Virus record (IMG/VR): IMGVR_UViG_2585427763_000004
Length of the DNA stretch: 47,112 nt
Strand: one strand, 5' to 3'
Source: a virus
Lineage: Duplodnaviria > Heunggongvirae > Uroviricota > Caudoviricetes
The notes beneath the pieces are model-generated. The model did not search any database. It was given only the letters and a program-made list of their open reading frames with translations, and was not told the origin of the DNA. Positions within the stretch are counted from its first letter, which is position 1, and every line of letters begins with the position of its first letter. This document shows, in pieces, positions 14,171 through 24,629 of this stretch. The translations under genes and the position numbers were made by a program.

Positions 14171-14545
14171 ATGCTCATAGATTTGGTTTTACCTTACCCG
14201 CCGACGGTGAACACTTACTGGCGACGCCGTGGCAGCACATATTTTGTATCAAAAGCCGGGGAGCGTTATCGCCGGGCAGTGGCGCTTATTGTTCGCCAGC
14301 AGCGGCTGAAATTAAGCCTGTCCGGAAGGCTGGCGATAAAGGTGATTGCAGAGCCACCGGATAAGCGTCGTCGCGACCTGGACAATATCCTGAAAGCACC
14401 GCTGGATGCGCTGACGCATGCGGGAGTGTTAATGGACGATGAGCAGTTTGATGAAATCAATATCGTTCGTGGTCAGCCAGTATCTGGTGGACGTATGGGG
14501 GTGAAGATTTACCCCATAATGCATGAAGAGCAGGTCAAAAAATGA
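14171..14545 (+). CDS. rusA: Crossover junction endodeoxyribonuclease RusA (Holliday junction resolvase)
   Basis: 124-aa ORF. Sequence matches the RusA family as recalled (PPTVNTYW ... DLDN ... DDEQF). RBS AAGAGG. Directly upstream of Q as in lambdoid nin regions. Confidence 0.9.
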   Translation: MLIDLVLPYPPTVNTYWRRRGSTYFVSKAGERYRRAVALIVRQQRLKLSLSGRLAIKVIAEPPDKRRRDLDNILKAPLDALTHAGVLMDDEQFDEINIVRGQPVSGGRMGVKIYPIMHEEQVKK

Positions 14546-15363
14546 AACTGGAAGATTTACCGAAATACTACTCCCCAAAATCCCCTGGCCTGACCGATGC
14601 ATCGGCCTCAACGTCAAAAGATGCGCTGAGTATCACTGATGTGATGGCCGCGCAGGGCATGACACAGAATCGGGCTGAGATGGGGTTTTCTGCGTTCCTG
14701 GGGAAAATGGGCATCAGTATGAATGACAGGGCGCGGGCAACAGAATTACTGGCAGATTATGCACTCAGTCGGTGCGATCGTGTGGCGGCGTTGAGAAAAC
14801 TTCCGGCAGAAATAAAACCGGTAGTGATGCGCATTATGGCTTCGTATGCGTTTGAAGATTATGCCCGTAGCGCGGCGAGCAAAAAACAGTGCCCCTGCTG
14901 TCACGGAAAAAAATTTATTGAAAGCGAGGTTTTTACAAACAAGATCCAGTATCCGGATGGTAAGCCACCAGTGTGGGCAAAGTGCACAAAAGGCGTGTAT
15001 CCGTCTTACTGGGAAGAATGGAAAAAAGTCAGGGAGGTGGTAAAAGTTGCCTGTCCGGAGTGTGGCGGAAAGGGTGAGGTTTCCACCGCCTGTAAGGATT
15101 GCCGTGGGCGTGGTGTCGCCATTCATCGTGAAGAGTCGGTAAAACGTGGTATGCCTGTTATCAGAGATTGCCAGCGTTGTGGTGGTCGTGGCTGTGAAAG
15201 GCTGCCATCAACGGAGGCATTTAATGCCATATGCAAAGTGACGAGTGCTATCACGCTTGATACGTGGAAAAAATCAGTGAAACGCTTTTACGATACGTTG
15301 GTGGTTCGGTTTGACATTGAAGAGGCATGGGCGGAGCGGCAGTTAAAGAGGGTAACGCGATAG
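14542..15363 (+). CDS. Q: Late-gene antitermination protein Q
   Basis: 273-aa ORF immediately upstream of a PR'-like promoter and tR'-like terminator. Carries four CxxCxGxG-type zinc-binding repeats (CPCCHGKK, CPECGGKGE, CKDCRGRGV, CQRCGGRGC). Confidence 0.75.
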   Translation: MKLEDLPKYYSPKSPGLTDASASTSKDALSITDVMAAQGMTQNRAEMGFSAFLGKMGISMNDRARATELLADYALSRCDRVAALRKLPAEIKPVVMRIMASYAFEDYARSAASKKQCPCCHGKKFIESEVFTNKIQYPDGKPPVWAKCTKGVYPSYWEEWKKVREVVKVACPECGGKGEVSTACKDCRGRGVAIHREESVKRGMPVIRDCQRCGGRGCERLPSTEAFNAICKVTSAITLDTWKKSVKRFYDTLVVRFDIEEAWAERQLKRVTR

Positions 15364-15368
15364 TGTTG

Positions 15369-15396
15369 TTGATTTTTCCCGAATCTGTGGTAAATT
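15369..15396 (+). promoter_or_regulatory. Late promoter PR'-like (-35 TTGATT, -10 TAAATT)
   Basis: TTGATT at 15369-15374 and TAAATT at 15391-15396, 16-nt spacer. Downstream GGTAAATTTG...AACGATGGG resembles the lambda PR' region as recalled. Confidence 0.55.
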
Positions 15397-15444
15397 TGCT
15401 CTAACGATGGGCGTTTTATGCCTGACGTTAGAAGATTTTTTACA

Positions 15445-15468
15445 CCCCGCCGCCTGGCGGGTTTTTTA
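15445..15468 (+). terminator. tR'-like rho-independent terminator (end of short Q-modified leader transcript)
   Basis: CCCGCCgcctGGCGGG followed by TTTTTT, about 50 nt downstream of the PR'-like -10. Confidence 0.6.
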
Positions 15469-15589
15469 TGACTGAAATCGCGTCAGTACAGTAAACGCGC
15501 TGGTGGCGGTGAATACCTGTCTTTCAGCTTGCTGGCTTTTTCGACAAGAGTTATTGGTGTGTCACGTTAACCGGAAAAGGGAAAAAGAC

Positions 15590-15787
15590 ATGCTAAAACA
15601 GCAGGATATGACAGAAACCGCCAGAGTGGTGTTTAATGAATTAAGCGTTACCGAACCGGCGACAGTCGGGGAGATAGCGCAGAATACTTACCTTTCACGC
15701 GAACGCTGCCAGTTAATACTGACCCAGCTGGTTATGGCGGGTCTGGCAGACTATCAGTTCGGTTGTTACAGACGCCTTCCGCAGTGA
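15590..15787 (+). CDS. Small winged-helix-like hypothetical protein
   Basis: Track ORF 15503..15787. The ATG at 15590 is preceded by an AAGGGAAAAAG purine-rich tract. 65-aa product with an HTH-like segment (ATVGEIAQNTYLSRERCQLILTQL). Confidence 0.4.
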   Translation: MLKQQDMTETARVVFNELSVTEPATVGEIAQNTYLSRERCQLILTQLVMAGLADYQFGCYRRLPQ

Positions 15788-15798
15788 AGGCTTTTTTA
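15774..15798 (+). terminator. Rho-independent terminator
   Basis: GCCTTCcgcagtGAAGGC followed by TTTTTTATT. Overlaps the stop codon of the upstream small ORF. Confidence 0.55.
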
Positions 15799-15937
15799 TT
15801 TGTGGTAAATGGGCGGCTGGTGGGGGTTAGGGGCACCCACCAGCCATCTGCTCATGCGTTGGGTTCACAAGCAAACCTCAGGCCCACTGCTTTGCGCAAA
15901 AGCAGAATGAGCCTATCAGAGACAGGCTTAATGATCC

Positions 15938-16987
15938 ATGCTTAATACTGTAAAAATATCCAGTTGTGAGTTAATCAACGCCGACTGCCTGGAATTTATC
16001 CGGTCGTTACCCGAAAATTCTGTTGACCTGATAGTCACGGACCCGCCGTACTTTAAAGTGAAGCCTGAGGGCTGGGATAACCAGTGGAAGGGCGACGATG
16101 ATTACCTGAAGTGGCTGGACCAGTGTCTGGCGCAGTTCTGGCGGGTGCTGAAACCTGTCGGAAGTCTTTACCTGTTCTGTGGTCATCGCCTGGCATCTGA
16201 TATCGAAATCATGATGCGTGAACGCTTCAGTGTGCTGAACCATATTATCTGGGCGAAGCCGTCCGGACGCTGGAACGGATGCAACAAGGAAAGCCTGCGG
16301 GCGTATTTCCCCGCCACAGAGCGCATTCTGTTCGCGGAACATTATCAGGGGCCGTATCGTCCGAAAGATGCCGGGTATGCGGCGAAGGGCAGTGCACTGA
16401 AACAGCATGTGATGGCCCCGCTGATTTCTTACTTTCGTGATGCGCGCGCGGCCCTGGGGATAACGGCAAAACAGATTGCAGATGCCACAGGAAAGAAAAA
16501 CATGGTGTCGCACTGGTTCAGTGCCAGTCAGTGGCAGCTACCGAACGAAAGCGATTATCTGAAATTACAGTCGCTGTTTGCCCGGGTGGCAGAAGAGAAA
16601 CATCAGCGCGGTGAACTGGAAAAGCCCCACCACCAGCTGGTGGATACGTATACGTCACTGAACCGGCAGTATGTGGAGCTGCAGAGTGAATATAAGCATC
16701 TGCGGCGGTATTTTGGTGTGACGGCGCAGGTGCCGTACACGGATGTGTGGACACATAAACCGGTGCAGTTCTATCCCGGGAAACATCCGTGCGAAAAACC
16801 GGCAGAAATGCTGCAGCAGATAATCAGCGCAAGCAGTCGTCCGGGTGACCTGGTTGCAGATTTTTTTATGGGCTCAGGTTCAACGGTAAAAGCTGCACTG
16901 GCGCTCGGGCGTCGTGCGATTGGCGTTGAACTGGAGACCGGACGTTTTGAGCAGACAGTCAGGGAAGTTCAGGATTTAATCGTTTGA
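15938..16987 (+). CDS. DNA methyltransferase (N6-adenine/N4-cytosine class, beta-type motif order)
   Basis: 349-aa ORF. DPPY catalytic motif near the N-terminus (VTDPPYF) and the AdoMet-binding FxGxG motif near the C-terminus (DFFMGSGST). No adjacent restriction endonuclease gene. Confidence 0.85.
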   Translation: MLNTVKISSCELINADCLEFIRSLPENSVDLIVTDPPYFKVKPEGWDNQWKGDDDYLKWLDQCLAQFWRVLKPVGSLYLFCGHRLASDIEIMMRERFSVLNHIIWAKPSGRWNGCNKESLRAYFPATERILFAEHYQGPYRPKDAGYAAKGSALKQHVMAPLISYFRDARAALGITAKQIADATGKKNMVSHWFSASQWQLPNESDYLKLQSLFARVAEEKHQRGELEKPHHQLVDTYTSLNRQYVELQSEYKHLRRYFGVTAQVPYTDVWTHKPVQFYPGKHPCEKPAEMLQQIISASSRPGDLVADFFMGSGSTVKAALALGRRAIGVELETGRFEQTVREVQDLIV

Positions 16988-17036
16988 AACGGATGAGATT
17001 GCAGAATTAATTACGCACCATTATTATTCTGCTTCC

Positions 17037-17112
17037 GGCCCTTTAGCTCAGTGGTGAGAGCGAGCGACTCATAATCGCCAGGTCGCTGGTTCAAATCCAG
17101 CAAGGGCCACCA
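17037..17112 (+). tRNA. tRNA with CAU anticodon (Met or lysidine-modified Ile2; ileZ-like of lambdoid/Stx phages)
   Basis: 76-nt cloverleaf folded by hand. Acceptor GGCCCTT/AAGGGCC, D-arm GCTC..GAGC, anticodon loop CUCAUAA, T-arm GCTGG-TTCAAAT-CCAGC, 3' ACCA. Confidence 0.85.
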
Positions 17113-17212
17113 TCACAAACCGCCATTAGCTTATCAGGAAGAGCAGACGACACGATAACAGGGTTGTTGGTGCGGGGGCGGGTCCCCGATGACGGTCCAT
17201 TATCGGTATTCA

Positions 17213-17289
17213 GCGTTGTTAGCTCAGCCGGACAGAGCAATTGCCTTCTAAGCAATCGGTCACTGGTTCGAATCCAGTACAGCGCGCCA
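17213..17289 (+). tRNA. tRNA-Arg (anticodon UCU)
   Basis: 77-nt cloverleaf folded by hand. Acceptor GCGTTGT/ACAGCGC (one G-U), anticodon stem ATTGC/GCAAT with loop CUUCUAA, T-loop TTCGAAT, 3' GCCA. Confidence 0.85.
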
Positions 17290-17396
17290 TATTCATTCTT
17301 CCAGATTCCTTTCGGCAGAGCCTTATACTGAAATATACCTGGCTCAGGATATTGTTGAAAATATTATATGTTTGTCAAAAATAAAAGTTCTGTTAA

Positions 17397-17753
17397 GTGT
17401 TGATTGAGTGTTTGTTATACGGTCTAATGGTTTTTTCAGCATTAAATATTTATCATTCATATGGTGTGGGTAGAGTGAATATTGATGAGGCGTCGGGGTG
17501 TTTCATCCTTAGGCAGCGTATTGATATAGTCAATGCAGAACGAGCAAAGGCCTTCAGCCGTTTGACAGTTTTGTTCTGTACTCCTGATCGTCTTTCGGGA
17601 AGAGACGTTATTATTCTGAATAGTGATGCTATACAGAGGGTTTGCGATGAGTTCATGGTGGCTAATTCAGAATTATTTGCTCTTGTTCAGGAGTACAACA
17701 GAATAGCCAGGACCTGTGGTATGGATGAACTTCGGATTACTCATCTGGGGTAG
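17397..17753 (+). CDS. Hypothetical protein (AT-rich cargo region)
   Basis: 118-aa ORF in a low-GC segment downstream of the tRNAs. Start codon uncertain (track uses GTG). No motif recognised. Confidence 0.3.
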   Translation: MLIECLLYGLMVFSALNIYHSYGVGRVNIDEASGCFILRQRIDIVNAERAKAFSRLTVLFCTPDRLSGRDVIILNSDAIQRVCDEFMVANSELFALVQEYNRIARTCGMDELRITHLG

Positions 17754-18146
17754 ATACATATCTGGATTATCACCGGTTACGGTAAAAAGTGATTGCTTAC
17801 TGTTTTTGTGAATGGCATTGCAGCAGCCGGATAATGTCAGTGCTGGCTGACGGTGTGCTGGTGGCGGGTGTGGTGGTTGCTGCTTTCCCGTTGCTGAAAA
17901 AGAAAACGCCAGACTGTTAGCCGGGTATCAGTTAGCGGGAGAAATTTTTAAATACTTCACAATTCAGGCGGTTGACTGTTGTCTGGTTTGCGGGGAGTTT
18001 GTTAAAAGAAACTGGCATGGTGAATCCCCCTGTGCGGAGGGGCAATCAGCGAGTAGGTATATGGGATAATCGCGGATTCAGGTGCTGGTACTGAATTCAC
18101 CGGGAGGCACCCGGCACCATGCAATGGCACATAGCGCCACTCTCCA

Positions 18147-18175
18147 GCCCCTCTCCGGAGGGGCTGTTTATATTG
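18147..18175 (+). terminator. Rho-independent terminator
   Basis: Perfect 7-bp stem GCCCCTC tccg GAGGGGC followed by TGTTTATATTGATTTT. Confidence 0.55.
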
Positions 18176-18200
18176 ATTTTGTCAGATGTGAGTAAACTCC

Positions 18201-18536
18201 TTATGGACTTTGTTGTTTTAGCCCATAAGGACATATTTGCAGAGTGCAACGGTTATTAAAGCATTCATTCAATACGTTATCTGTATTTGTAGGGCATTCC
18301 TGGCTGTTTTTGATTAAATTCCAGAATGTTTTATTGAATGGTACTACGTTGTAAATGGTTACAGGCAGCACTTTGTTATTGAGCATGATGCCTGTGTGAG
18401 TCAGTGTAAATATACTTTCAGGAGGTAAGAAAGCATCCGATTGATACCAGATTATTAATTTTATTTTACTCCATATGACTGAAAAAGATATTCCGCATGA
18501 TGGCTGGATAACTGTATCAATCACAATCCACTTCAT
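18201..18536 (-). CDS. Hypothetical Cys-containing protein (AT-rich, opposite strand to late operon)
   Basis: 111-aa ORF, low GC. C-terminal cysteine cluster [27 protein letters not shown] long open frame in AT-rich DNA is unlikely by chance. Confidence 0.35.
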
Positions 18537-18796
18537 TTAGTTTCCTTGTTTATGCCTTGCTGGTGATGTTCTGAAAAGTATAAATGATATTTTTGATTGT
18601 AAACCATAGAGCAGAATTATTTTTCTGATGTTGTTTATTGTTTATTTAAATGCAGGGTGGTTTATATCTCGTCTTGTAGTTTATCCATGCATATCTGCTT
18701 GATGATGAGGTTTTTAATTAAGGTATGGTTTTGTGTTTTTTCTGTATTACATGTCAGGTATTTTAAAGAATCATTTTTCAGATGGTGGAAAGAACC

Positions 18797-20650
18797 ATGG
18801 CATTTAAACACTATGATGTTGTCAGGGCGGCGTCGCCGTCAGATCTTGCGGAAAAGCTGACACATAAACTGAAAGAGGGCTGGCAGCCGTTTGGTAGTCC
18901 GGTGGCCATAACCCCTTATACCCTGATGCAGGCGATTGCAGCAGAAGGTGATGTGGTCGTCAGTGGTGCAACTGAGCCGGAGTGGTACTACGTCATCGTA
19001 CTGGCCGGGCAGTCCAATGCCATGGCTTACGGTGAAGGGCTTCCGCTTCCGGATTCATACGATGCGCCCCATCCGCGCATTAAGCAACTGGCCCGTCGTA
19101 ACACAGTGACTCCCGGTGGTGAAGTATGCGTATTTAACGACATCATTCCTGCTGACCATTGTCTGCATGATGTTCAGGATATGAGTACGATTAACCATCC
19201 CCGGGCTGACCTGAGCAAAGGGCAGTACGGCTGTGTCGGACAGGGCTTACATATTGCCAAAAAACTGCTTCCGTATATCCCTAATAACGCGGGGATCCTG
19301 CTGGTACCATGCTGTCGTGGTGGTTCGGCATTCACCCAGGGCACGGAGGGGACATTCAGCGAGTCCACGGGGGCCAGTCAGGATTCGGCTCGCTGGGGAG
19401 TGGGTAAGCCGTTATATCAGGATCTGCTTTTCCGCACGAAGGCAGCATTGCAGAAAAACCCGAAAAACGTTTTGCTGGCGATATGCTGGATGCAGGGGGA
19501 ATTCGATATGACGAATGCCAGTTACGCCCAGCAGCCAGCAGCATTTCTTGCAATGGTACAGCAGTTCCGTGCTGACCTTGCCGGGCTGGCGGCGCAGTGT
19601 CACGGTGGAAGTCCGGCATCAGTCCCCTGGATTTGTGGCGACACGACATACGCGTGGAAACAAGAACACGGTACGCAATATGAAGTGGTATATGGTGCAT
19701 ATAAAGGTAAAGAATCCCAGCAGATTTATTTTGTTCCCTTTATGACCGATGGTAGCGGAGTTAATACACCGACAAACAACCCGTCAGAAGATCCTGATAT
19801 TGTCGGGTCTGGTTATTACGGTTCGGCATCCCGAACGAACAAAAACTGGGTATCATCAAATCGCCCGACGCATTTCAGCTCATGGGCGCGTCGTGGCATT
19901 ATTCCCGATCGTATGGCAACCGCTATTCTGAACGCAGCCGGGCGCACCTCAGCCTTCATCAGTGGTAAGGCACCGGAAATCAAACCCTCGCCCGGCGGCG
20001 ACACGCCATCGGGTCCGTCTGCAGATACGTCCGTTCGCACAATCTCCCTGCTGCCGACAGCCGGAGAGGCTGCTGCGCAGGGCTGGAGCATTAAGAATGG
20101 CGGAATTCAGTTGTCAGATGGTGTATTTAAGATCACCAAGCAGAGCAATAAAGCCTGGTCCCTGACGCGCCCGGTGGATGACGCAGTCTCCCTGCTGACA
20201 CGGGGTGGCAGACTGAGCTGTAAGTTTCGACTGTCAGGCGCACTGACCAACAACCAGTTCGGTCTGGGAATTTATCTGTATACCGATGTAGCGTTACCTG
20301 ACGTCGTGGCGATGACCGGGACTGGTAACCCGTTCCTGATGTCGTTCTTCACCCAGACCACAGACGGCAAACTGAATCTGATGCATCACAAGAAAGCCGG
20401 AAACACAAAGTTGGGCGAGTTCGGGAATTACAGTAACGACTGGCAGACGCTGGAGCTGGTGTTCACCGCCGGCAGTGCCACGGTTACTCCGAAACTGAAT
20501 GGAGTGGCTGGCCCGGCATTCCAGGTCATAAAAGACAGTCTGACAGTGGGACTAAATGCACTGACGCTGACGGATATTACCAAAAATGCAACGTATGGCG
20601 TTGAGATAGAAAGTCTGGTGCTGGAGATAAATGCACCGGCATCATCATAA
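18797..20650 (+). CDS. nanS: NanS-p-like sialate 9-O-acetylesterase (DUF1737 N-terminal domain + SASA/SGNH esterase domain)
   Basis: Track ORF 18782..20650; the ATG at 18797 gives [21 protein letters not shown] (DUF1737-like). Esterase block [17 protein letters not shown] with the GQSN motif. Occupies the slot downstream of tRNAs/stx in Stx-type phages (recalled). Confidence 0.7.
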
Positions 20651-21019: not shown

Positions 21020-21334
21020 ATGACTCAAAACTATAAACTGATTGTGAAAGGGATCCGCAATTTTGAGAATAAAGTTACGGTAACTTTAGCGTTACGGGAC
21101 AAAAAACGCTTTGACGGTGAAATTTTTGACCTGGACATCTCGCTGGACCGTGTTGAAGGTGCCGCGCTGGAGTTTTATGAGGCAGCAGCCAGAAGGAGCA
21201 TCAGACAGGTCTTCCTGGATGTTGCTGCCGGGTTATGTGAAGGGGACGAGCTGTTGCCAGAAACGCGCCCCTGTTCAGAGGCGCGGTATACCATAAAAAT
21301 TAACAGTTCTGATAACTCGATTACGGGTTGTTAG
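21020..21334 (+). CDS. Hypothetical protein inserted between holin and endolysin
   Basis: 104-aa ORF with an RBS-like GGGGAGAG upstream. No motif recognised. Its position inside the lysis cassette is atypical for lambda. Confidence 0.45.
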   Translation: MTQNYKLIVKGIRNFENKVTVTLALRDKKRFDGEIFDLDISLDRVEGAALEFYEAAARRSIRQVFLDVAAGLCEGDELLPETRPCSEARYTIKINSSDNSITGC

Positions 21335-22013: not shown

Positions 22014-22050
22014 AAAACCCCGTTTGTTGGCACCAAGCGGGGTTTTGTGT
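22014..22050 (+). terminator. Possible rho-independent terminator
   Basis: AAAACCCCG ... CGGGGTTTTGTGTTT with a long loop. Weaker than the other terminators called. Confidence 0.35.
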
Positions 22051-22121
22051 TTCCTGACTCCGGAAAAGTCAAAGGAGAAAGTGTGTTTGATTTTAGCAAA
22101 CTGATTCGGGAGATTCGAGTG

Positions 22122-22220
22122 ATGGCTGAAAAATTATCCACCTGGAAGTTCATTCTTATCTGGCTGGTGTTTGTGATTATGGCCTCCGGTTATTTCATCG
22201 GTCAGATACGCTGGTGGTGA
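22122..22220 (+). CDS. Possible small membrane peptide (32 aa)
   Basis: Manual translation: [32 protein letters not shown], stop 2 nt before the Rz ATG, RBS-like GGGAG upstream. Could be spurious. Confidence 0.25.
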
Positions 22221-22221
22221 A

Positions 22222-22686
22222 ATGAACCGCGTACTGTGCGTGGTCATCATTGCCCTGCTGGTGGCCTGTGGTGCGCTTAGTCTGGGGCTGAATCATTACC
22301 GTGATAACGCCATTACCTACAAAGCCCAGCGCGACAAAAATGTCAGAGAACTGAAGCTGGCGAACGCGGCAATTACTGACATGCAGATGCGTCAGCGTGA
22401 TGTTGCTGCGCTCGATGCAAAATACACGAAGGAGTTAGCTGATGCGAAAGCTGAAAATGATGCTCTGCGTGATGATGTTGCCGCTGGTCGTCGTCGGTTG
22501 CACATCAAAGCAGTCTGTCAGTCAGTGCGTGAAGCCACCACCGCCTCCGGCGTGGATAATGCAGCCTCCCCCCGACTGGCAGACACCGCTGAACGGGATT
22601 ATTTCACCCTCAGAGCGCGACTGATAATAATGCAAAAACAACTTGAAGGGGCACAGCTATACATTCGAGAGCAATGCCTCAGATAA
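22222..22686 (+). CDS. Rz: Rz i-spanin (inner-membrane spanin subunit)
   Basis: 154-aa ORF. N-terminal TM helix, coiled-coil-like periplasmic domain. Contains an embedded +1-frame lipoprotein ORF (Rz1). Confidence 0.8.
22442..22624 (+). CDS. Rz1: Rz1 o-spanin (outer-membrane lipoprotein), embedded in Rz
   Basis: 60-aa ORF wholly within Rz in another frame. Lipobox LVVVGC, proline-rich mature part ([16 protein letters not shown]). True start may be an internal Met. Confidence 0.7.
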
Positions 22687-22993
22687 AAACCGGCCAAGGA
22701 TAATCCGCTGAAGATTCGCCGGTGGCTAAAGTGTGCCAAGAGTTCAATTTACGCAATTACTCCTGTCGATGCTATGCACCGTCTTTGTGAAGTCAATGGA
22801 TACCTGATTTATTTCTGTGCGCTGTATCGTCGCTGTACTCTTGCATTAATTATGACTGTAGCCTGACGGGGAACTCCTTCTGCACAAGTGTGGGGGAATA
22901 ATCAAAAACGATGCACACCGGGGTTACCGGGTACACATATTTCATCATGCCAGCGAGTCCGGTTCTGGTACGGAAGAAACCGGACGTTATGAT

Positions 22994-23404
22994 TTAGTGC
23001 GGAAATATTTGTGTAGTGTTCTGAATGTTCTCAGTAAAGAGTAATGAATTATCAAAGGTATAGTAATATCTTTTGTTTTCGTGGATATTTGTAATCCATC
23101 TGAAAACCCCTGCTGTAGCAAGATTTTTCCTGTATTCGTAAAATGATAACTCTCCTGATTTGAATCCTTTTAAGGTGGCTTCTATAAGGCATTTATTTTT
23201 TGAAAATCTTACATTTACAACCTTACCCTGTCCTTTTATTAAAACCGTATTATCGTTTTCAAGAACAAGATGAATATTCTCTGTGGCTAAATAGTAAATG
23301 TAATGTGAGACATTGTGACGTTTTAGTTCAGAATAAAACCAGTGATAGTTTAAATTATTTCGCACTTTATCGAATATTTGTTTAAAAATGGCAACCTGAG
23401 CCAT
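22994..23404 (-). CDS. Hypothetical protein (low-GC moron; YbcV/DUF1398-like position, tentative)
   Basis: Track ORF 22994..23419; likely start at MAQVAIFKQ (136 aa). AT-rich. Occupies the bor/ybcV slot between the lysis genes and cos. Confidence 0.4.
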
Positions 23405-23461
23405 TGTAGTACCTTCCATGTGATATGAGGGGGCGTAGTCTGCACGATTATCTAAATTGCT

Positions 23462-23695
23462 TCAATCTGGTCTGACCTGTTTTCTGAGCAATTCAGTAAT
23501 GTCACTCTTTTCTTTGTTTGCTTCAGGCGAAACTCTTTTTTCTGAGCACAGTCTCCGGCGGCAGGCTTCAATGACCCAGGCTGAGAAATTCCCGGACCCT
23601 TTTTGAACAAGAGCGATGTTAATTTGTTCAATCATTTGGTTAGGAAAGCGGATGTTGCGGGTTGTTGTTCTGCGGGTTCTGTTCTTCGTTGACAT
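23462..23695 (-). CDS. Ribbon-helix-helix (Arc/CopG-like) DNA-binding protein
   Basis: 77-aa ORF. RHH-like segment RNIRFPNQMIEQINIALVQKGSGNFSAWVIEACRRRL. Immediately upstream, on the same strand, of the 136-aa ORF. Confidence 0.45.
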   Translation of the reverse strand: MSTKNRTRRTTTRNIRFPNQMIEQINIALVQKGSGNFSAWVIEACRRRLCSEKRVSPEANKEKSDITELLRKQVRPD

Positions 23696-23894
23696 GAGGT
23701 TGCCCTGTATTCAGTGTCGCTGATTTGTATTGTCTGAAGTTGTTTTTACGTTAGGTTGATGCAGATCAATTAATACGATACCTGCGTCATAATTGATTAT
23801 TTGACGTGGTTTGATGGCCTCCACGCACGTTGTGATATGTAGATGATAATCATTATCGCTTTACGGGTCCTTTCCGGTGATCCGACAGGTTACG

Positions 23895-23906
23895 GGGCGG
23901 CGACCT
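23895..23906 (+). other. cos: cosN cohesive-end site (12-nt GGGCGGCGACCT identical to phage lambda)
   Basis: Exact 12-mer GGGCGGCGACCT, followed by CGCGCGTTTTCACTATTTATGA, closely resembling the lambda left end as recalled. About 215 bp upstream of the terminase small-subunit gene. Confidence 0.8.
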
Positions 23907-24122: not shown

Positions 24123-24629
24123 ATGGCCTTTTTATTGAATAAAAGTGATATGGCCTCCTCCATCGGTATCTCTGTTCAGGCATTTGATAAATGGGGCGTT
24201 CCTCCTGTTGAACGTCGGGGGAGGGAAGTTTTATATGACGTTAAAACTGTACTGGAGATAGATCGCGAGCGGCGACAACACAATCAGAGAACACCTGATG
24301 ACGGGGGAGAACTGGAGGAAAGGCTGCTTCGGGCCAGAGCTGAACTGACAGAAGAACAGGCTGTAGCTCAAAAACTTAAAAATCAGGTAACCGAAGGTAA
24401 GCTCATCGATTCAGACTTCTGCGTTTTCGCCCTCAGCAAACTGGCGATGGCATTGTCCAGTACGCTTGATTCCATTCCGTTATCCATGCAGCGACAGTTC
24501 CCGGATTTAACGCCACGTCATATTGACCATCTGAAAACCCTTATTGCAAAGGGCGCAAATCAGTGTGCGCGGGCAGGGGATAAATTACCGGATTTGCTGG
24601 ATGAATATATCAGAGCAACAACTGAATAA
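24123..24629 (+). CDS. nu1: Terminase small subunit (Nu1-like)
   Basis: Track ORF 24018..24629. The ATG at 24123 is preceded by GGAGAGG. Aligns by eye with lambda Nu1 (EVLYD..., FCVFALSKLAMALSSTLDSIPLSMQRQFPDL). Confidence 0.85.
   Translation: MAFLLNKSDMASSIGISVQAFDKWGVPPVERRGREVLYDVKTVLEIDRERRQHNQRTPDDGGELEERLLRARAELTEEQAVAQKLKNQVTEGKLIDSDFCVFALSKLAMALSSTLDSIPLSMQRQFPDLTPRHIDHLKTLIAKGANQCARAGDKLPDLLDEYIRATTE

Follow-up and report, generated by a model that had tools for sequence, protein, structure and literature searches.

The closest described relatives of the locus analysed here are found in bacteriophage lambda and in two prophages of Escherichia coli K-12. In the cryptic Qin prophage, ynfO (b4533) is followed by ydfO (b1549) beside a Nu1-type packaging gene (nohA); in the DLP12 prophage, the order is borD–ybcV–ybcW–ylcI–nohD, and the right end of lambda reads bor – lambdap78 – lambdap79 – an unnamed ylcI-like open reading frame (ORF) – cos. 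The present analysis concerns two ORFs, of 77 and 136 codons, that lie on the minus strand between the lysis gene Rz and the cosN site of a virus of the Caudoviricetes (IMG/VR record IMGVR_UViG_2585427763_000004; its 47,112 nucleotides as a whole are called the window below). These ORFs are almost certainly the ynfO/ylcI and ydfO/ybcV genes of lambdoid phages, and the module that they form is the Qin-type ynfO–ydfO region, whose relatives are ylcI and ybcV in DLP12 and, in lambda, the ybcV-like gene lambdap78. The module is thus already known as regards its sequence, its protein families, a structure and named genes in K-12 and lambda. Its two members are most likely separate accessory ('moron') genes placed between the lysis cassette and cos, and not an obligate two-component system; taken as a whole, this explanation is put forward with moderate confidence.

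Identity and conservation of the module

The 77-residue protein is a member of the YlcI/YnfO family, as it matches both family models above their cut-offs (Pfam PF13132, DUF3950, 72.8 bits against a cut-off of 25; NCBIfam NF041551, YlcI_YnfO_N, 35.2 bits against a cut-off of 30), and 75 of its 77 residues are identical to those of E. coli K-12 YnfO. The 136-residue protein matches Pfam PF07166 (DUF1398) with 147 bits (cut-off 22) over positions 1–119 of the 119 positions of the profile, which is its sole Pfam match, and is 75% identical to YdfO, 77% identical to YbcV and 76–77% identical to the lambda and DLP12 copies. In RefSeq, a 99.9% identical locus of 1.5 kb carries the labels 'DUF1398 domain-containing protein' and 'DUF3950 domain-containing protein', with 'terminase small subunit' at the position equivalent to 24123..24629. 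An alternative ATG at 23419 would extend the DUF1398 protein to 141 residues; the start of the 136-residue form is preceded by the Shine–Dalgarno sequence GGAAGG (23412–23417, 7 nt upstream), and the longer form has none.

The window shares with Qin the gene order, the strand relation, the lengths of the two genes (234 and 411 nt) and the neighbouring Nu1-type packaging gene. The spacer is also 57 nt long in Qin, its first 51 nt being identical to those of the window, and a PdhR-box-like 17-mer at the end of ynfO is identical as well. The two loci differ in the DUF1398 allele, which is just 75% identical to YdfO, and in their setting, since Qin is a cryptic remnant whereas the module of the window lies within what appears to be a complete late region of the lambda type. 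In lambda and DLP12, the homologues occupy the same slot in the same orientation, and lambda is about 99% identical to the window from cos to codon ~50 of ynfO/ylcI. Beyond this point, lambda and DLP12 have a different YlcI tail (64 aa), about 590 bp with an opposite-strand ybcW(-like) gene between the two genes, and bor downstream, whereas the window has neither ybcW nor bor. Homology to lambda resumes about 20 nt before the stop codon of ynfO in the window. Because the junction in the window is without the ~590-bp ybcW segment, ynfO ends in ~7 codons whose counterpart in lambda is non-coding and lies upstream of the ybcV-like gene. On the 3′ side of the DUF1398 gene, where bor usually stands in lambda and DLP12, there is only a non-coding remnant, the first ~150 nt of which are homologous to the lambda sequence after lambdap78.

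The module has the features expected of a moron, namely a non-essential insert between conserved modules that runs antisense to the late operon, has an atypical base composition and varies in presence among related phages; the guanine-plus-cytosine (GC) fraction is 0.31–0.37 over about 22900–23500, as against about 0.50–0.55 in the lysis and terminase genes. The lambda morons bor and lom are likewise non-essential genes of atypical GC content in the late region, and bor also lies on the opposite strand; however, bor and lom encode envelope proteins with known lysogen expression and phenotypes, whereas for ynfO and the DUF1398 gene neither lysogen expression nor a role tied to their location is established. 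A first-pass annotation, made from the letters alone, had described an AT-rich accessory module of two minus-strand ORFs between Rz and cos, in the 'bor/ybcV slot' of lambda-like phages. The coordinates and strand of both ORFs, their flanks and the base composition all agree with that description, the Pfam families and purifying selection bear out the ORFs, and the slot is literally correct because the 136-residue protein is a ybcV/ydfO homologue, although bor itself is absent. The same annotation was right in calling the function unknown; it had left both genes unrecognised, whereas they are the named K-12 genes ynfO and ydfO, with a solved structure (PDB 2HH8).

Both ORFs are real genes under purifying selection and not chance ORFs. 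The ratio of nonsynonymous to synonymous substitution rates (dN/dS) is 0.06–0.09 for codons 1–50 of ynfO in comparison with the copies in Shiga toxin (Stx) phages, and 0.22–0.38 for the DUF1398 gene in comparison with the copies in lambda, Qin and DLP12. Among 20 YlcI homologues, residues 1–50 are near-invariant and are predicted to consist, in this order, of a basic arm (MSTKNRTRRTTTRN), the IRFP strand, a helix, the GSGNFS turn and a second helix. From residue ~50 onwards, both the sequence and the length of the tail are hypervariable. A decaying, functionless remnant that persists merely through its proximity to cos might look similar in some respects, as the genes are non-essential, are tightly silenced in laboratory conditions and still belong to the E. 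coli 'y-ome', ynfO, ydfO and ycgX being listed as uncharacterised as late as 2024–2025. Such a remnant is nevertheless very unlikely in view of the purifying selection on both genes, the intact ORFs in thousands of genomes, and the retention of the YlcI domain in phages that are unrelated in their packaging module as well as in the DNA upstream of the gene.

The 136-residue protein was modelled with AlphaFold2 (AF2). An alignment that included distant family members gave a model with a predicted local distance difference test (pLDDT) score of 89, whereas with close homologues alone the model was of no use (pLDDT 48). The former model matches the solution nuclear magnetic resonance (NMR) structure of YdfO (PDB 2HH8), determined by structural genomics, and has the two alpha-alpha-beta-beta-beta repeats of the YdfO fold; as modelled, these two repeats make up a soluble protein of the alpha/beta type. 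Structure comparison with this model found no structural neighbour besides YdfO itself, so that the fold is an orphan. The differences among DUF1398 alleles, including those from YdfO, cluster in residues 58–97 (window 23108–23233), which form a long loop and helices 3–4 of the model; here dN is 0.34–0.36 and dN/dS is 0.36–0.78, as against 0.10–0.29 in the flanks. Two allele classes occur in E. coli, one of at least 99% identity (1063 records) and one of 80–90% identity (1649 records). The variability of residues 58–97, as judged from these substitution rates, could be due to relaxed constraint or to a variable interaction surface.

Homologues of the DUF1398 protein, among them those in RefSeq phage records such as NC_001416 and NC_049953, are labelled 'head protein' (PHROG 413, from which the label has entered RefSeq) or, in the case of lambdap78, 'putative envelope protein', and these labels would speak for a structural (virion) or envelope protein. 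Both labels are unsupported, and such a role is extremely improbable. The gene is antisense to the late (virion) operon, knock-down of lambdap78 did not reduce plating (efficiency of plating ~1.9; PMC10695390), and paralogues occur singly on chromosomes, remote from phage genes. The sequence of the 136-residue protein shows neither a signal peptide nor a hydrophobic segment, and the NMR structure is that of a soluble protein.

Association of the two genes

If the two genes were an obligate pair, they should occur together, and this is found in neither direction. With tblastn, YlcI is detected in 155 phage records and DUF1398 in 43, and complete E. coli genomes contain 8365 ylcI-like places and 3411 DUF1398-like places. 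The DUF1398 loci found at 28–53% identity are all without YlcI within 4 kb, and on chromosomes more than 30 DUF1398 genes are without it at this distance; the loci include K-12 ycgX, which lies beside bluR/bluF, and their neighbours are unrelated and have nothing in common. In Stx phages, the packaging module is a different one (HNH-terS-terL); ylcI stands there without DUF1398 at the corresponding boundary of lysis and packaging genes, once more antisense to the late operon, and homology to the window begins exactly at the ATG of ylcI. Divergent YlcI proteins (38–45% identity) are encoded beside Icd-like and capsid genes in satellite-like elements of Klebsiella and Enterobacter plasmids, again without DUF1398. 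A 2026 survey also records YlcI/YnfO proteins in capsid-forming phage-inducible chromosomal islands (PICIs), which are phage satellites.

The position of YlcI-family genes is constant across these elements: they stand immediately beside packaging or head genes and point in the opposite direction, whether the neighbours are Nu1/A as in lambda, HNH-terS-terL as in Stx phages, or Icd and capsid genes as in the satellite-like elements.

The first-pass annotation had compared the module to antitoxin–toxin or regulator–effector pairs. Antitoxins with a ribbon-helix-helix (RHH) fold exist, for example ParD, RelB and CcdA, and a type II toxin–antitoxin system in which YnfO is the RHH antitoxin and the DUF1398 protein the toxin would fit the layout of an AT-rich mobile island in which the gene of a small, probable DNA binder immediately precedes, on one strand, that of a larger protein. 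The likeness to ParDE, RelBE and CcdAB is a superficial one of layout, as there is here no conserved partnership, no conserved partner-binding tail and no toxin homology, and DUF1398 is commonly alone. Apart from the co-occurrence, which fails both ways (K-12 ycgX and more than 30 further DUF1398 genes have no such partner), ybcW separates the two genes in lambda and DLP12, and the YlcI tail is not what is expected of a toxin-binding region because it is hypervariable after residue ~50; moreover, its last codons in the window stem from lambda-noncoding DNA. A PADLOC scan yielded no toxin or defence model for DUF1398, the sole match being below threshold (Csx23, E 0.025), and the predicted structure, a check that the annotation had proposed, returned the fold of 2HH8 and no toxin-fold similarity. 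The 2HH8 chain consists of YdfO alone, with extra residues beyond position 141, which suggests that YdfO was over-produced without a partner, and a rare natural read-through fusion of YnfO with DUF1398 exists. A toxin–antitoxin system is thus highly improbable, and ynfO and the DUF1398 gene very probably form no obligate pair. The module therefore has no place among the candidates for toxin–antitoxin or defence systems. The regulator–effector comparison fares differently in part: an obligate pair is unsupported, whereas the looser reading of a regulator beside a gene that it may regulate is still tenable.

The fusion just mentioned reflects the frame relation of the two genes. They share one frame, with a single TGA and 19 sense codons between them (23402–23464), and the same arrangement across the TGA is present in K-12. 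A 233-residue YnfO–DUF1398 fusion (P0014, TGA-to-TGG) occurs on 6 short public contigs only, the rest of its cluster being ordinary 136-residue proteins or fragments. Programmed read-through of the TGA as a conserved feature was considered and rejected; it is not regarded as designed because the frame is lost in 31 of 79 close relatives and the fusion is confined to those few contigs.

Regulation and possible roles

YnfO is probably an RHH protein, to judge from profile–profile comparison and register. When the YlcI profile was aligned by hhalign with a hand-built alignment of twelve RHH cores, the match had P=8.6e-5 and a probability of 60%, as against P=0.29 for the reversed control, and lay in the correct register, IRFP falling on the beta-strand and GSGNFS on the turn between the helices. 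When a more diverse YlcI profile was run against the whole PDB, the top match was the CopG-family RHH protein 9kkd_A, aligned end-to-end and in the correct register, with a non-significant E=1.3. In ungapped comparisons with NikR and Arc, the observed score was reached by only 12 and 46 of 2000 shuffles, respectively. The earlier call of an RHH DNA-binding protein is therefore plausible, with support that is moderate only.

Similar to the Arc/Mnt/CopG repressors, YnfO is small and basic and has a predicted strand–helix–turn–helix order in RHH register, and ynfO, like arc–ant in the immI region of P22, lies antisense within a lambdoid late region with a larger gene after it. It differs from them in that its similarity is sub-threshold, that the downstream DUF1398 is unrelated to Ant, and that YlcI is usually without a downstream partner. 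An imperfect inverted repeat lies between cos and ynfO, 70–100 nt upstream of the ynfO start, and overlaps a −35-like hexamer, TTGATC. The repeat is identical in lambda. Its designation as the YnfO operator was rejected, and it is retained merely as a candidate operator/promoter region, because it is absent upstream of ylcI in Stx phages.

Two further sequence elements lie in the spacer between the genes and at the adjoining end of ynfO. One is a −10-like hexamer, GATAAT, at 23447–23452. The other is the 17-mer AACAGGTCAGACCAGAT, which overlaps the last ynfO codons about 60 nt upstream of the DUF1398 start; the match is exact and unique in the window, with 0 expected by chance, and the homologous lambda sequence is non-coding and lies upstream of the ybcV-like gene. 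In K-12 Qin, the same 17-mer is listed as a PdhR site found by systematic evolution of ligands by exponential enrichment (SELEX) between ynfO and ydfO, and a separate PdhR site lies between ybcV and ybcW; in a pdhR mutant, ybcV and ybcW mRNA is reduced about 10-fold (PMC7660256). Overexpression of T4 MotB raises DLP12 ybcV and ybcW more than 1000-fold, in a study whose title ties MotB to altered H-NS-dependent repression (PMC7827196), ydfO is induced by an ionic liquid (PMC4077768), and loss of ybcV is tolerated, since the ybcV::kan mutant of the Keio collection is viable (PMC3945230). The statement that over-expression of YdfO leads to oxidative-stress resistance (PMC4077768) could not be located in the main text of the source cited for it and was not used. 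A scan for promoters and terminators found no terminator beyond chance in the region, and a search of Rfam gave nothing usable.

An alternative is a cassette of the Arc–Ant type, in which YnfO would be an RHH repressor autoregulating one promoter near cos that drives both genes in this Qin-type arrangement, with DUF1398 as the effector under this control, for instance one that modulates a regulator of host or phage. Phage P22 also has RHH genes, arc and mnt, inside its late operon. The two genes of the module lie on the same strand with a 57-nt gap and no minus-strand terminator-like site between them, the arrangement is kept in 79 of 80 close relatives, YnfO is weakly similar to Arc in the correct register, and in Enterobacter satellites, members of the YlcI family are recorded next to AntA/AntB antirepressors (PMC13612085). 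Such a cassette is nevertheless unlikely. In lambda and DLP12, ~590 bp and an opposite-strand gene part the two genes, and the DUF1398 gene must have its own promoter there because of this intervening segment; a PdhR site lies between the genes; YlcI without DUF1398 far outnumbers YlcI accompanied by it; the repeat regarded as a candidate operator is not kept where the region upstream of ylcI differs; and DUF1398 is without similarity to antirepressor families.

For two separate morons, the following mechanism is proposed, the chances of which are judged to be about even. The conserved 50-residue N-terminal domain of YnfO is predicted from sequence to fold as an Arc/CopG-like RHH domain, which would dimerise and bind DNA as a transcriptional regulator, its target being most simply its own promoter or that of a neighbouring moron; the tail would have arisen as a by-product at recombination junctions and be dispensable. 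The DUF1398 protein would be soluble and cytoplasmic, with a pseudo-twofold alpha/beta platform fold, and its gene would have a promoter of its own, located within the 3′ end of ynfO or directly behind it. This promoter, lying on AT-rich DNA, would normally be silenced in the manner of H-NS and would depend on the pyruvate sensor PdhR. The protein may act as a conditional factor in the host physiology or fitness of the lysogen by binding a host partner or ligand, and would be neither an enzyme nor a toxin. Neither gene is needed for lytic growth, to judge from the plating of the lambdap78 knock-down and the viability of the ybcV::kan mutant.

Several results weigh against the explanation by two separate morons and its mechanism. 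HMMER searches with the YlcI profiles against Pfam and the PDB gave no significant RHH family or structure, and the RHH assignment is statistically insecure, as there is no Pfam RHH match and the best PDB match is the non-significant one given above. Where YlcI is at least 97% identical, DUF1398 lies directly downstream in 79 of 80 viral contigs, and a functional link within this lineage is possible because of this adjacency; these adjacent copies are one recently spread module and not independent observations. In the promoter scan, neither gene had a consensus sigma-70 promoter, the matches in the region being no more frequent than expected by chance. Finally, a 2020 review names only cI, rexAB, lom and bor as lysogen-expressed lambda genes (PMC7067206), so that lysogen expression of ynfO and the DUF1398 gene is unproven.

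The smaller gene is the more interesting of the two, since it encodes a strongly conserved, probably DNA-binding domain of 50 residues and is found, in antisense orientation, where the lysis and packaging genes meet in many lambdoid phages, lambda among them. The conservation of this domain at that junction despite unrelated packaging modules and upstream DNA is a point for specialists. A joint reading of the two genes, which must be regarded as unlikely, is that YlcI/YnfO is an Arc-like RHH repressor kept by lambdoid phages, and by satellites that form capsids, at the point where lysis or regulatory genes adjoin packaging or head genes, whatever the packaging module, and always transcribed against the late operon. 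There it might set a lysogeny-specific antisense or roadblock control of late read-through, or might control neighbouring morons, and DUF1398 might be a PdhR- and H-NS-gated factor that ties the prophage to the pyruvate status of the host, with residues 58–97 tracking a variable host or phage partner.

Host range and neighbouring features

The region is matched in 4332 of 5426 complete E. coli genomes and also in lambda, and few unexplained gene pairs of E. coli prophages are commoner than this module. When 1.84 billion representative proteins were searched exhaustively with HMMER, only 189 clusters were returned, and in a scan of 185,579 species genomes the true hosts belong only to the Enterobacteriaceae (Escherichia, Shigella, Citrobacter, Klebsiella, Kluyvera, Pseudocitrobacter and Salmonella diarizonae). 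Apparent hosts of DUF1398 or YlcI outside this family, such as Staphylococcus, Kitasatospora, Flavobacterium and others, were discounted, as they are mostly lambda-type copies.

The right end of lambda is present in the 'genomes' or 'plasmids' of unrelated organisms at many loci (L013–L036 and L045–L049, as well as plasmid records such as CP127227.1, CP113245.1 and NZ_CP092122.1), and further carriers are Xanthomonas and Synechocystis. Contamination with lambda control DNA is suggested because DUF1398 is 76% identical there, the spacing is of the ybcW type and the contigs are often of ~3.5 kb; by their sequence, these stray right ends look like sequencing control DNA (lambda amplicon) left in assemblies. 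This contamination inflates the apparent host range of DUF1398 and DUF3950. A metagenome-assembled genome of Nanosynbacter (L005) contains a module of the window type with 100% identity, which looks like carry-over from an E. coli prophage.

The features of the module, of its flanks and of the late-regulatory region, together with YlcI-family genes at other loci, are listed in Table 1.

Table 1. Coordinates of the ynfO–ydfO-type module and of related features. Positions refer to the window unless a locus (L155, L156, L159, L160) is named.
Feature	Position	Strand	Basis
ynfO/ylcI-type gene, 77 aa, DUF3950	23462..23695	-	ORF, Pfam, NCBIfam, identity to K-12 YnfO
ynfO codons 1-50, conserved domain	23546..23695	-	comparison of 20 homologues, dN/dS
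ydfO/ybcV-type gene, 136 aa, DUF1398	22994..23404	-	ORF, Pfam
57-nt spacer from ynfO to DUF1398 gene	23405..23461	-	sequence reading
PdhR-box-like palindrome AACAGGTCAGACCAGAT	23465..23481	-	exact match to 17-mer
Imperfect inverted repeat ATCAATTAATACG / CGTCATAATTGAT, 13-nt arms, 7-nt gap	23765..23797	.	sequence reading
cosN GGGCGGCGACCT, right boundary of the module	23895..23906	+	single exact match
Non-coding remnant 3′ of DUF1398 gene	22687..22993	-	alignment with lambda right end
Rz, left flank, end of lysis cassette	22222..22686	+	Pfam Phage_lysis, 177.7 bits
Rz1, embedded in Rz	22442-22624	+	Pfam Rz1, 71.3 bits
Nu1-type small terminase subunit, right flank, first packaging gene	24123..24629	+	Pfam Phage_Nu1, 76.2 bits
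Q antiterminator	14542-15363		
DNA methylase	15938-16987		
tRNA-Met(CAT) and tRNA-Arg(TCT)	17037-17289		
622-aa protein, DUF1737 + SASA sialate-O-acetylesterase + DUF6645, NanS-p type	18782-20650		
YlcI-family gene, Stx and related phages	L155 3501-3728		
YlcI-family gene, Stx and related phages	L156 3001-3201		
YlcI-family gene, plasmid	L159 3001-3195		
YlcI-family gene, plasmid	L160 2257-2784		

Some further observations concern the surroundings of the module. The stretch from 14542 to 20650 is a late-regulatory region that resembles that of Stx-type lambdoid phages, with no toxin genes noted in passing. In the bor-less gap, a promoter-like sequence (TTGACT-16-TAGCAT, 22769–22796, minus strand) points antisense into Rz/Rz1. 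Within the lysis cassette, a 104-residue protein of the DUF1327/YdfR family is encoded between holin and endolysin (21020–21334), and an ORF of 57 codons in the interval between endolysin and Rz (22047–22220, phrog_6632) encodes a protein whose C-terminal half is hydrophobic.

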